From positions 53,118 to 117,117 of the forward strand of contig NZ_DASWYD010000010.1 in NCBI RefSeq assembly GCF_036405155.1: 64,000 nucleotides of DNA, read 5' to 3'. The notes beneath the pieces were generated by a model. That model was not told the DNA's origin. It did not search any database and was given only the letters and a program-made list of their open reading frames with translations. The translations under genes and the position numbers were made by a program. This stretch comes from Limnobacter sp. (GTDB lineage Bacteria > Pseudomonadota > Gammaproteobacteria > Burkholderiales > Burkholderiaceae_B). This document shows, piece by piece, positions 13,517 to 22,273 of this stretch (position 1 is its first letter; each line of letters opens with the position of its first letter).

Positions 13517-14755
13517 ATGCAGATTCAATTGCGCGACCCCTTGGTATTGCCGTGTGGCGCCACCCTGCCCAACCGCCTGGTGAAGGCCGCCATGAGCGAA
13601 GCCCTGGGCACCACCGACAACCGGGTGACCGAGAAACTGGTGCGCGTGTATGAACGCTGGTCGGCTGGCGGCATCGGCATGAACATCACCGGCAACGTCA
13701 TGATTGACCGCCGCGCAAGGGCAGAGCCTGGCAACGTGGTGATTGAAGACGACCGCGACATGCCCCTGCTGAAAGCCTGGGCCAAAGCAGGCCAGTCCCA
13801 CGGCGGGAAAATCTGGGTACAAATCAACCACCCCGGCAAGCAATGCCCCAAGGGCATGAACAAAGAGACGGTGTCCCCGTCCGCAATCCCCTTCCGCAAA
13901 GACCTGCAAATGATGTTTGCCACACCGCGCGCTCTGGAAGAGTCTGAAATTCTGGACCTGATCCAGCGCTGGGGCCGCACCGCCCGCATTTGCAAGGAAG
14001 CGGGTTTTGACGGTGTGCAAATTCACGGCGCACATGGTTACCTCATCAGCCAGTTTTTAAGCCCGCTCACCAACCAGCGCACCGATGCCTGGGGTGGCAG
14101 TTCTGAAAACCGCCGCCGTTTTGTGTTGGCCGTCTATGACGAGGTGCGCAAGCAGGTGGGCCCCGACTTCCCTGTCGGCATCAAATTGAACTCGGCCGAT
14201 TTCCAGCGTGGTGGCTTTAGCGAGGAAGAGTCCCTGGCGGTGATTGAAGAATTGACCGCACGCGGCATCGACTTGGTGGAAGTGTCCGGCGGTACCTATG
14301 AAGCACCCGTGATGACCGGCGCCACCCAACCCAAGAAAGACAGTACCGTGAAACGCGAAGCCTATTTCATCGACTTCACCGAGAAAGTGCGGGCGCGCTG
14401 CAAAGTGCCCCTGATGCTGACGGGCGGGTTCCGAACAGTGGGTGGCATGAAGCAGGCGCTGAACACCGGTGCGGTGGATGTGATTGGCCTGGCCCGCTCC
14501 ATTGCCATTGAACCCGAATTGCCCAGCCGCTTGCTGGCTGATCAAGAAGCCCAGTACCCAGTAAAACCGTTGATCACCGGGGTGAAGGCAGTGGACAATT
14601 CCGGCTTGCTGGAAATTCAGTGGTACACCCGCCAGATTCACCGCATGGGCAAGGGGAAAAACCCGGTGCCCAACGAGCATCCACTGAAGGTGCTGTTTTT
14701 CTACCTGATTGAAAGCAGCTGGGGATTGTTCAAGTCCCGTCGCTTGCGGGCTTGA
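13517..14755 (+). CDS. NADH:flavin oxidoreductase (Old Yellow Enzyme / 2,4-dienoyl-CoA reductase-like)
   Basis: 412 aa with LPNRLVKAAMSE, WVQINHPG and HGAHGYLISQFLSPLTNQRTD, which are OYE TIM-barrel motifs. Confidence 0.85.
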   Translation: MQIQLRDPLVLPCGATLPNRLVKAAMSEALGTTDNRVTEKLVRVYERWSAGGIGMNITGNVMIDRRARAEPGNVVIEDDRDMPLLKAWAKAGQSHGGKIWVQINHPGKQCPKGMNKETVSPSAIPFRKDLQMMFATPRALEESEILDLIQRWGRTARICKEAGFDGVQIHGAHGYLISQFLSPLTNQRTDAWGGSSENRRRFVLAVYDEVRKQVGPDFPVGIKLNSADFQRGGFSEEESLAVIEELTARGIDLVEVSGGTYEAPVMTGATQPKKDSTVKREAYFIDFTEKVRARCKVPLMLTGGFRTVGGMKQALNTGAVDVIGLARSIAIEPELPSRLLADQEAQYPVKPLITGVKAVDNSGLLEIQWYTRQIHRMGKGKNPVPNEHPLKVLFFYLIESSWGLFKSRRLRA

Positions 14756-14767
14756 TGTGTTTGGCTG

Positions 14768-14784
14768 GGCTCACGGCGTGAGCC
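14768..14784 (+). terminator. hairpin GGCTCAC-GGC-GTGAGCC downstream of the OYE gene
   Basis: 7-bp GC-rich stem followed by TATTTA. A nearly identical hairpin occurs at 21691-21706. It may be a terminator or part of, or a target for, the repeat that follows. Confidence 0.4.
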
Positions 14785-14797
14785 TATTTAGTTGATT

Positions 14798-15225
14798 GCC
14801 CCCCAGCAACACCGGAAGCCCGGTCCGAACGCCCCCCGAAGGTAAAGGTTGCCCCGCGCACTCGAACCGGACCGATAACTCGCGCCGATGGCGCTCAGAC
14901 ATCTCGGTCCGTGTGTTCGAATGCTGTGCGGGTCAAACCGATCGGGGGGCTGACTGTTCGGCACCGGGCATACCGGTATTGCTGGGGGGCGAAAAGACTC
15001 GGTGCAATTTGGTGGCACCGTCACTGCGGCATGCGCGGTTGACCTCCCCTGCAGCGACAGTCAGGGCCATTGGCCCGAGCGTGCCAAACAGGTGCGGTGG
15101 GCACAGCCGCCAGGCTGGCCCAAAGGTCGATCCCGACTCGCTGTTTGGAGGGGCGACCTTAGCGATCGTGCGGCTCAGCGAGGGAAATACCAATGGACCG
15201 TCGCCAAGGGCGAGGTAACCGCGCT
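14798..15225. repeat. structured intergenic repeat, copy A (candidate ncRNA or ORF-less mobile element)
   Basis: About 428 bp, highly similar to 21765-22174. The 5' half folds as a long rod with four helices: 14798-14815/14973-14990, 14818-14823/14964-14969, 14825-14830/14956-14961 and 14831-14839/14942-14950. An inner helix pairs 14862-14874 with 14905-14920, capped by an apical hairpin at 14882-14894. No credible ORF; the overlapping ORFs are similar between copies only at the nucleotide level. Confidence 0.75.
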
Positions 15226-15280
15226 GCGCCGCAGCCCACGCGCCTTGATTGAAGCGGTCTCGAAATGTCGCGACTACAAT

Positions 15281-16054
15281 TCAATCCTTGTAATCCGCCG
15301 CCACCCGATCCAATTTCCGCAATAACGCCGGCCACGCAATATTGCCACCCGCACTCAAAGTCACCTTCTCAGCCGCCGCTTGAATACCCGCCACAATGCG
15401 TGGGTCCACCTGAATCAGCGCGCCGCCACTGCTTTGCGCCTTCACCTGGATTTCACACGACCGTTGCAAAAAGAACATACGCAAAAACGCATCCGCCACC
15501 GTTTTATCGCAGGTCAGCAATCCATGGTTGCGCAAGATCATGCTGCAGGTGTTGCCCAGGTCTGCCACCAAACGCACTTTTTCTTCCGGGTTCAATGCAA
15601 TGCCTTCGTAGGCGTGGTAACTCAGGCCCGACATCGGAAACAGCGAATGCTGTGAAATCGGCAGCAGTCCGTCCTTCTGTGTCGACACCGCCACGCCATC
15701 CACGGTGTGCAGGTGAATCACGCAGTTGGCGTCTTCACGGGCTTCGTGAATGGCGCTGTGAATGGTAAAACCAGCCGGGTTGATCTCATAGGGGCTGTCC
15801 ATCACCTTGCGCCCCTGCAAATCAACTTTGACCAGGCTGCTGGCCGTGATCTCTTCAAACAACAAACCATAGGGGTTGATCAGGAAGTGATGTTCCGGCC
15901 CCGGCACACGGGCAGAGATGTGGGTGAACACCAAGTCATCCCAGCCATACATGGCCACCAGGCGGTAACACGCAGCCAGGTCCACGCGCATGCGCCATTC
16001 TTCGGCGCTCACGTGTTCACGCAGTGAGTGGGTGTTGGGCAATGGTGCATTCAT
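15281..16054 (-). CDS. class II aldolase/adducin family protein
   Basis: 257 aa preceded by GAGGAGA. DLAACYRL, THISARVP and NCVIHLHT are typical of this family. Confidence 0.85.
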   Translation of the reverse strand: MNAPLPNTHSLREHVSAEEWRMRVDLAACYRLVAMYGWDDLVFTHISARVPGPEHHFLINPYGLLFEEITASSLVKVDLQGRKVMDSPYEINPAGFTIHSAIHEAREDANCVIHLHTVDGVAVSTQKDGLLPISQHSLFPMSGLSYHAYEGIALNPEEKVRLVADLGNTCSMILRNHGLLTCDKTVADAFLRMFFLQRSCEIQVKAQSSGGALIQVDPRIVAGIQAAAEKVTLSAGGNIAWPALLRKLDRVAADYKD

Positions 16055-21690: not shown

Positions 21691-21706
21691 GGCTCACGGC
21701 GTGAGC
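21691..21706 (+). terminator. hairpin GGCTCACGGCGTGAGC downstream of the PhaC-like gene
   Basis: Same sequence as the hairpin at 14768-14784. No clear U-tract. Confidence 0.35.
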
Positions 21707-21764
21707 TTGATCCGTGCCGATTCATTTGCCCCTCAGCAAGGCCGGTAGCAGGTGCCTGTTTATT

Positions 21765-22174
21765 ACCCCCCAGCAATACCGGTTGCCCGGTCCGAACGCC
21801 CCCCGAATGCAAAGGTTGTCCCGCGCCCTCGAACCGGACCGAGAACTCGCCACTGCGTGGCTCAGACATCTCGGTCCGTGTGTTCGAATGCTGTGCGGGT
21901 CAAACCAATCGGGGGGCTGAATGTTCGGCACCGGGCACACCGGCATTGCTGGGGGCATGACACCGAGTCGTTTAGCGGCCTGTGCGGTTCACCTCCCCTG
22001 CAGCGACAGTCAGGGCCATTGGCCCGAGCGTGACAAGCAGGCGCGGTGGGCACAGCCGCTAGGCTGGCCCAAAGGTCGATCCCGACTCGCTGTTTGGAGG
22101 GGCGACCTTAGCGATCGTGCGGCTCAGCGAGGGAAACACCAATGGACCGTCGCAAAGGGCGAGGTAACTGCGCT
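21765..22174. repeat. structured intergenic repeat, copy B
   Basis: About 410 bp, collinear with 14798-15225 and diverged only in a central segment of about 50 bp. The apical hairpin at 21849-21861 (GCCAC-TGC-GTGGC) differs from copy A (GCGCC-GAT-GGCGC) by two compensatory pair changes. Confidence 0.75.
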
Positions 22175-22273
22175 AGCCCCGATCTGCCACCAAAATGCTC
22201 CGTTCAACATCACACCCCAAAAAAACAAAACCCTCCACTCGGGAGGGTTCTGCACTTCAGCACTGCCAACCGA

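Follow-up and report, generated by a model that had tools for sequence, protein, structure and literature searches.

We analysed a 64-kb stretch of Limnobacter DNA (contig NZ_DASWYD010000010.1, hereafter the window, to whose positions all unlabelled coordinates refer) that carries two copies of a dispersed repeat of about 0.43 kb, each in a gap between two convergent genes. Copy A (14799-15234) lies between the gene of an OYE-type flavin oxidoreductase on the + strand and that of a class II aldolase on the - strand. Copy B (21729-22195) had been placed, in an earlier reading made from the letters alone (the sequence-only reading), in a convergent gap ahead of pstS, and this was borne out: by Pfam the upstream gene encodes an alpha/beta-hydrolase (+ strand) and the downstream gene a PstS-type PBP_like_2 protein (- strand). 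Both copies belong to one repeat family without an open reading frame (ORF), in which compensatory changes conserve a fold, the + strand is the strand that folds, the core of the element is constrained, and most copies stand 3' of terminator-like stem-loops. A census found at least 20 distinct loci of the family in Limnobacter humi NBRC 111650 (labels of the form L0xx denote loci, of L. humi unless stated otherwise), in addition to the two copies in the window.

Anatomy of the repeat

A repeat search aligned copies A and B in two blocks, a left block of 198 nt with 89% identity (14791-14988 and 21758-21955) and a right block of 200 nt with 95% identity (15026-15225 and 21975-22174), and a BLAST comparison of the two copies gave E = 2e-151; as a whole the copies share 87-95% identity. 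The copies had been described as collinear save for a central segment, and the alignment agrees with this; only the linker between the blocks diverges, and it is the main difference between the copies, as its length is about 41 nt in A and about 24 nt in B and the two sequences are unrelated. The alignment of all copies shows a common plan, which runs 5' to 3' from zero to three sub-repeats through a rod-shaped hairpin (domain 1), a linker and a second folded domain (domain 2) to a short 3' tail (Table 1). Across the copies the linker is 10-50 nt long and occurs in several unrelated versions. The tail of copies other than B reads approximately TGCCGCAG-TCAA, and in many copies it pairs with the CTGCGGC of the linker, thereby lengthening the closing helix of domain 2.

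Each sub-repeat consists of a degenerate version of the first 21-24 nt of the rod hairpin (consensus CCCCCAGCAACACCGGTAGCC) followed by a T-rich spacer of 12-15 nt, and the start-to-start spacing is 34-37 nt; the same layout is found in L045, L048, L044, L043, L040 and L040b. The sequence-only reading had noticed a partial duplication in copy B, with an extra 5' copy, GCCCCTCAGCAAGGCCGG, at 21728-21745. The duplication is real but not special to this copy, as between one and three degenerate sub-repeats of some 35 nt stand at the 5' end of most copies, and it is copy A, without any, that is the unusual member. In L. humi the most alike pair is L045 and L048: between the hairpin's first C and the far end of the closing helix their identity is about 96%, in the sub-repeat region it falls to about 65%, and farther out they are unrelated, which indicates that the conserved unit spans from helix base to helix base.

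The terminal pieces are sometimes multiplied in tandem. The last approximately 30 nt are present three times at L054:1900-2010 (- strand), and the GCGCAGTG tail is doubled at L037:3610-3650. Three 5' sub-repeats are present in the ortholog of copy A in L. humi (L040:1000-1066), against none in the window copy.

Table 1. Features of copies A and B and of the neighbouring hairpin motif, in window positions
Feature	Positions	Strand	Description
Copy B 5' sub-repeat	21729..21765	+	DR1 CCCCTCAGCAAGGCCGGTAGC at 21729-21749, then spacer ending TTTATTA; degenerate copy of the first ~21-24 nt of domain 1
Copy B domain 1	21766..21955	+	190-nt imperfect rod hairpin; base CCCCCCAGCAATACCGG pairs with CCGGCATTGCTGGGGG
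Copy B domain 1 apical hairpin	21849..21861	+	GCCAC-TGC-GTGGC
Copy B variable linker	21956..21979	+	Joins the two domains
Copy B domain 2	21980..22178	+	~200 nt; closing helix CUGUGCGGUU/AACUGCGC, helix stack, three-way junction with two hairpins; covariance model 210.6 bits
Copy B degenerate 3' tail	22179..22195	+	3' boundary approximate
Copy A domain 1	14799..14989	+	Rod hairpin
Copy A domain 1 apical hairpin	14882-14894	+	GCGCC-GAT-GGCGC
Copy A linker	14990..15030	+	CTGCGGC (15024-15030) pairs with GCCGCAG (15228-15234)
Copy A domain 2 and 3' strand of extended closing helix	15031..15234	+	Covariance model match 15031-15229, 215.6 bits
GGCTCA-N5-TGAGCC instance, outside the element	21691..21707		13 nt past the hydrolase stop codon; twin at 14768-14784
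GGCTCA-N5-TGAGCC sites (17 nt each)	1736, 6627, 14768, 21691, 31563, 36605, 37813, 42077, 51803, 55231, 59300, 62160		

Compensatory changes and the folding strand

RNAalifold, run on 16 copies aligned with MAFFT, gives domain 2 a consensus fold of 70 pairs with 94.5% of the cells paired, and at 18 of these pairs (63 cells) both sides have changed. As controls, we shuffled the alignment 500 times, and none of the shuffles reached the observed result; when the 3' partner was slid by 1-3 columns, at most 8 such pairs and about 30-41% pairing were found. Smaller alignments of the domain gave the same covariation result. The sequence-only reading had proposed to extend the comparison to the other genomic copies and to check covariation there, and the 16-copy alignment of domain 2 does show many pair-preserving changes.

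The largest set of changes divides the copies into two types. Between type 1 and type 2, seven pairs have changed across two helices about 120 nt apart: in the first, CCAUUGG/CCAAUGG is replaced by CAAUCUG/CAGAUUG, and in the second, CCCGAGC/GCGAGGG, which has a tandem G-A, is replaced by the fully paired CAAAACC/GGUUUUG. One hairpin of the junction occurs in at least four compensated versions, and the other is GGUCGA/UCGACC in most copies and GUUUCG/CGAAAC in L062. These compensations sit in separate helices and in separate sets of copies and are independent in origin. L051 and L052 are mosaics that have helices of both types, which shows that copies recombine. Conservation is not limited to the helices, as 26 of the 57 unpaired columns of domain 2 are invariant, and they are grouped in several blocks. 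We also looked at a possible pairing of the domain 2 loop CUCGCUG with CAGCGAG but rejected it, since it is not kept in the mosaics L051 and L052.

Domain 1 is more conserved. In 13 copies its 71 pairs have 93.8% of the cells paired, and five pairs have changed on both sides, including two in the apical hairpin. It was this apical hairpin, with a change of two adjacent base pairs between copies A and B, on which the sequence-only reading had based its argument for selection on structure. The change is confirmed in the sequence and preserves pairing in every copy, with CG/AU in 10 copies and GC/CG in three (window copy A, L044 and L038). Taken over the counts made, one state has 10-11 copies and the other 2-3, and the change is seen in 3 of 14 copies. 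There are only two states, however, and they possibly go back to one event; a template-switch mutation in a long quasi-palindrome could yield the same switch without selection. The apical switch alone is therefore weak evidence for structural selection, and the case for selection on structure, which does hold, comes chiefly from the long-range compensations of domain 2.

To which strand the fold belongs is indicated by the wobble pairs. G-U cells outnumber A-C cells in domain 2 by 65 to 10 (at 18 and 9 pair positions, respectively), which identifies the + strand as the folding strand. In copy B, the + strand has a folding energy of -238 kcal/mol (z = -9.5 against shuffled sequence) and the - strand -231 kcal/mol (z = -7.6).

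We considered whether the fold might act at the level of DNA, that is, whether a single-stranded or cruciform form is recognised by a transposase encoded elsewhere, as in non-autonomous palindrome-associated derivatives of IS200/IS605 type, with RNA being irrelevant. Domain 1 would suit such an element, as it is a near-palindrome with little strand bias, and so would ends defined by hairpins in place of terminal inverted repeats, as in single-strand transposons, the tandem duplications at both termini in some copies and the position of copies beside other hairpins. The wobble excess is also compatible with it, because G-T wobble occurs in DNA too. On the other hand, a three-way junction of about 200 nt with conserved junction nucleotides and 18 covarying pairs far exceeds any known transposase-binding hairpin, the small terminal hairpins at the two ends are unlike, and no Y1 or other transposase gene lies beside any of the approximately 22 copies. 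We consider this explanation unlikely.

Distribution, turnover and genomic context

The OYE protein of the window shares 98% identity with its counterpart in L. humi NBRC 111650, compared with 79-88% for other species of Limnobacter. The contigs of 185,579 GTDB species representatives were scanned with one protein-based locus search and four DNA patterns (an exact 25-mer, an exact 20-mer, a degenerate 24-mer and a gapped pattern of three anchors). The exact 25-mer had no match at all in these contigs. The exact 20-mer, taken from domain 1, matched 12 L. humi loci; its matches in unrelated taxa (L042 and L049) fall in coding DNA and were judged to be chance. The degenerate domain 2 24-mer and the gapped pattern of three invariant anchors matched L. 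humi alone. No copy was found in JGI metagenomes or IMG/VR with one pattern scan each, or in PLSDB plasmids and GenBank phages with blastn. The covariance model of domain 2 found no further copy in the window and none in about 140 kb of other Limnobacter species, an amount of sequence too small to exclude the family there. A literature search turned up nothing relevant. By these searches the family appears restricted to the L. humi lineage, where alone it was found.

Logan short-read contigs that carry the exact window OYE, aldolase or PstS proteins (L001, L002 and L056-L061) all end 35-65 nt inside the element, from either side, which indicates that those environmental samples, too, contain the element as a repeat. 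The repeat breaks short-read assemblies in at least eight sequencing runs (SRR114491xx and SRR186713xx series).

L040 and L046 adjoin each other in L. humi, in a region syntenic with the window at 13.4-30.2 kb, and orthologs of both A and B are present there, so both insertions are older than the separation of the two lineages. Between orthologs, the aligned portions of the element are 85% identical. As a neutral yardstick, we used 640 four-fold degenerate sites from four flanking genes compared between the window and L. humi, which are 65.6% identical; the difference indicates that the core of the element is constrained. The sub-repeat with its spacer is 62% identical, which is about the neutral level, and the rest of the intergenic flank has roughly 30-60% identity, or about 30% with the conserved region of the pstS terminator excepted. 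In two more distant genomes, L. litoralis (L023) and one Limnobacter metagenome-assembled genome (L006), the OYE and aldolase genes abut, without the element and without the hairpin.

In L. humi, internal deletions of about 90 nt have shortened both orthologs (L040:1266-1390 for A and L046:1-60 for B). The deletion in the ortholog of B lies exactly between 8-nt direct repeats, CTGTGCGG (21892-21899 and 21980-21987 in the window), which suggests loss by slippage or through microhomology. There are also signs of exchange between copies. The two window copies (15124-15164 in A, 22073-22113 in B) have in common CCCAAAGG...CCTTAGCG, with a compensated change from a G-C to an A-U pair, and CTGTTTGG. 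In L. humi all copies, the ortholog of B among them, read CCCAGAGG...CCTCAGCG instead, together with CTTTTTGG or TTTTTTGG. These shared derived states suggest gene conversion between the window copies, which are 7 kb apart.

The element encodes no protein and is linked to no protein gene. The mechanical ORFs within it have no Pfam match and no protein homolog, a protein database search with the longest of them, which would have caught genes called in error on other copies, returned nothing, and the copies differ by indels of 1 and 2 nt, which are not multiples of three. An all-against-all comparison of the flanking ORFs found no recurrent protein among the approximately 22 loci. By Pfam the neighbours are housekeeping genes, unrelated to one another, and include HsdR, a class II aminoacyl-tRNA synthetase, an MFS transporter, GshA, FolP, FlhA/FlhB, PntB, a response regulator and a TetR regulator. 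Rfam 15, whose families include HEARO, IS605-orfB, the group II intron domains, 6S, tmRNA, RNase P and the self-cleaving ribozymes, gave no match on the whole window at gathering thresholds, and at E<=10 copy B, copy A and a type-2 copy gave noise only, at 9-22 bits, far below gathering.

These results bear on the possibility that the copies specify a guide or scaffold RNA acting in trans, in which case they would be orphans serving an unlinked nuclease or recombinase, like OMEGA (IscB/TnpB) or IS110 bridge RNAs, with the guide taken from the flanking DNA. HEARO and omega RNAs also occur as many copies without an ORF. The family resembles them in being multi-copy, structured on the + strand, covarying and free of an ORF, in having boundaries that match helix ends with variable flanks, and in probably being read through from outside. 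Against this, the three copies searched have no Rfam match to HEARO, IS605-orfB or any other family at E<=10, there is no IscB, TnpB, DEDD recombinase or recurrent gene at the approximately 22 loci, and there is no sign of recent homing or mobility. We give this explanation a slim chance.

Most copies lie 15-65 nt past the stop codon of a gene in the same orientation, as a rule between convergent genes. A stable terminator-like stem-loop precedes the element at 9 or more of 16 loci and ends 3-22 nt short of it. The size of about 0.4 kb and the sense position just 3' of terminator stem-loops resemble class C group II introns, and an ORF-less intron of this class, or another known terminator-targeting ribozyme, was considered. 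Rfam shows no match to domain V/VI or D1-D4 at E<=10, the architecture is a rod with a three-way junction rather than six domains round a wheel, and no reverse transcriptase lies nearby. A group II intron or known ribozyme is effectively refuted by this evidence.

The 3' position also raises the possibility of a domesticated cis-acting module that the host keeps at gene 3' ends, for example as a bidirectional terminator or insulator for convergent genes, or as a barrier to 3' exonucleases that stabilises the upstream mRNA. Occupation of the same sites in two species, evolution at about half the rate of four-fold sites, the placement of most copies in convergent gaps just past stop codons and an aldolase gene without its own terminator before copy A are in line with such a role. 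It is hard to reconcile with the loss of about 90 nt from both orthologs in L. humi and with copies at gene starts or antisense in the flhB-flhA operon, and a plain barrier needs no conserved three-way junction with invariant unpaired blocks. We regard a cis-acting module as rather improbable. At the locus of copy A, the interval from the element to the stop codon of the aldolase gene (15235-15281; gene at 15281-16054, - strand) contains no terminator-like site, and on the - strand the hairpins of the element are the first strong structure past this gene.

A 17-nt hairpin lies near both window copies: GGCTCACGGCGTGAGCC at 14768-14784 is 14 nt ahead of the first C of copy A, and GGCTCACGGCGTGAGCT at 21691-21707 is 58 nt ahead of position 21766 in copy B. 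The sequence-only reading suggested that it could be the end of the element or its insertion target, unless it should prove to be a common hairpin unrelated to the element, and it is the latter that the window census shows. With at most one mismatch, GGCTCA-N5-TGAGCC occurs 12 times in the window, where 0.25 occurrences are expected. On the + strand, 8 of about 27 GGCTCA sites have TGAGCC exactly 5 nt on, and no other spacing up to 34 nt is found; the GGCTCA hexamer alone is not over-represented in the window, and the 5-nt loops vary. Most instances are far from elements. At least seven are within likely genes, where the motif is read in two frames, as LAxxxSL and as GSxxEP; a stop codon is overlapped by one instance, and two follow stop codons at a distance of 13 nt. 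The motif stands upstream of the element at only five examined loci (A and B in the window; L037, L040 and L052 in L. humi), and at the L. humi ortholog of copy B the element is present with a different small hairpin in the place of the motif. GGCTCA-N5-TGAGCC is an independent genome-wide feature and not an end of the element, and at most it is one among many stem-loops beside which copies occur. Candidate roles for it are a protein-binding site, an uptake-like signal and a hairpin signal. A third sequence similar to the context of stop codon and hairpin at copies A and B (GCTGAGGATGTGTTGCCGGGCGCACCGAGTGAGC) is found at 62142-62175; it is 68% identical to 14750-14783, and no element follows.

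Interpretation and comparison with known systems

Our preferred reading, to which we assign a probability of about one half, is that the family is a non-autonomous dispersed element that is active as the folded + strand, probably as read-through RNA, that machinery encoded elsewhere dispersed it in the clade's ancestor, and that it survives at the 3' ends of genes, subject to gene conversion and occasional decay. The active form would be a single-stranded + strand molecule, most likely RNA produced by read-through from the upstream gene, because no sigma-70-like promoter was detected in or before copy A or copy B. The machinery that spread the family in the clade ancestor may have recognised or needed the fold, and with this machinery encoded elsewhere the element would be non-autonomous. 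After the species split, the copies would have been fixed in place, with gene conversion between them and occasional internal loss. At present the copies probably act as large stable RNA structures at the 3' ends of genes, which would form a barrier or insulator between convergent genes; dedicated regulation of any one gene is probably not involved.

Several observations weigh against this reading. The strand bias of domain 1 is weak (33 G-U and 19 A-C cells), and the folded strand may be RNA or single-stranded DNA. Both window copies are at orthologous sites in L. humi, and neither mobility nor a polymorphism between empty and filled sites was seen. No target duplication was found either, where the only empty sites are those of distant species with unalignable flanks and short-read contigs break inside the repeat. 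A comparison of the 5' end with the reverse complement of the 3' end in 12 copies gave no consistent terminal inverted repeat. The orientation of the copies is less informative than it seems, since between convergent genes an element always has the orientation of its 5' neighbour. Moreover, L051 and L053 adjoin the start codons of folP and gshA, and L055:2474-2761, which is heavily rearranged, lies antisense between flhB and flhA in the flagellar export operon, so the preference for 3' ends is not absolute. Finally, about half of the L. humi copies are deleted internally or truncated, including the orthologs of A and B, and such frequent deletions indicate that individual copies are dispensable. 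Dispensability sits uneasily with purifying selection unless only a few copies are selected and gene conversion spreads their sequence. Selection on the family or on a subset of copies, with conversion carrying the sequence to the rest, would be consistent with the observations.

We regard as quite doubtful a further account in which the family would be an undescribed two-domain structured RNA gene of about 0.4 kb, under purifying selection in two Limnobacter species and acting in trans. An unlinked nuclease or recombinase might use this RNA as guide or scaffold, or the RNA might be catalytic and have driven its own dispersal to sites just 3' of terminator stem-loops.

The interest of the family lies in the combination of covarying long-range helices, a strand bias and change slower than that of synonymous sites, which is the mark of a functional folded strand. 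If the active form of the non-autonomous element that we prefer is RNA, the family would be a new class of large structured RNA tied to a mobile or formerly mobile element; if it is not, the family would be a clean example of structure-dependent repeats that persist and homogenise. The system is tractable, as L. humi NBRC 111650 is a cultured type strain, and the repeat has a practical effect in that it breaks short-read assemblies of the L. humi lineage at every copy.

Bacterial interspersed repeats are usually short palindromes or miniature inverted-repeat transposable elements (MITEs), in which structure follows trivially from the inverted repeats. Compared by description, the Limnobacter family is like ERIC/IRU, Correia/NEMIS, RPE, bcr1 and SMAG in being a lineage-restricted, ORF-less, multi-copy imperfect palindrome in transcribed intergenic DNA near gene ends, and, as in these repeats, the fold is kept among copies while single copies are dispensable. 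It differs from these repeats in being three to four times larger, in having a second, non-palindromic covarying domain of about 200 nt and in lacking terminal inverted repeats that span the unit. With classical MITEs it shares a small, non-coding, multi-copy, dispersed and non-autonomous character, but its ends are not mutual inverted repeats and its long-range helices covary, which transposition of double-stranded DNA does not require. REP and BIME sequences are palindromes of 20-40 nt, often clustered and associated with a RAYT gene, whereas the unit described here has about 430 nt and two large domains; the 17-nt GGCTCA-N5-TGAGCC hairpin is closer to REP in size but occurs inside ORFs too. 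The palindrome-associated transposable elements of IS200/IS605 type (PATEs) have similar subterminal hairpins at their two ends and a conserved target of 4-5 nt 5' of the left end; in the Limnobacter family the 4 nt before the unit are loosely A-Y-W-G, some tails end in TCAA and the small end hairpins differ in sequence.

Among systems based on RNA, HEARO/OMEGA RNAs are similar in being structured over several hundred nt, in occurring as many copies without a protein gene, in lacking terminal inverted repeats and in having ends defined by structure. The Limnobacter copies differ in having no Rfam match and no adjacent IscB, IsrB or TnpB, and in being old and fixed in position. Unlike the loci of IS110/IS1111 bridge and seek RNAs, no copy contains an ORF for a DEDD recombinase or has a recurrent neighbour. 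Class C group II introns, once their ORF is removed, are of similar size and share the sense position 3' of terminator-like stem-loops; domain V, the six-domain fold and the reverse transcriptase are lacking in the Limnobacter element. In behaviour the family is nearest to ERIC-type repeats and to ORF-less HEARO/omega copies, and by the tests applied it is a member of neither. What distinguishes it within the structure-bearing interspersed repeats of bacteria is a large non-palindromic domain that is backed by covariation.

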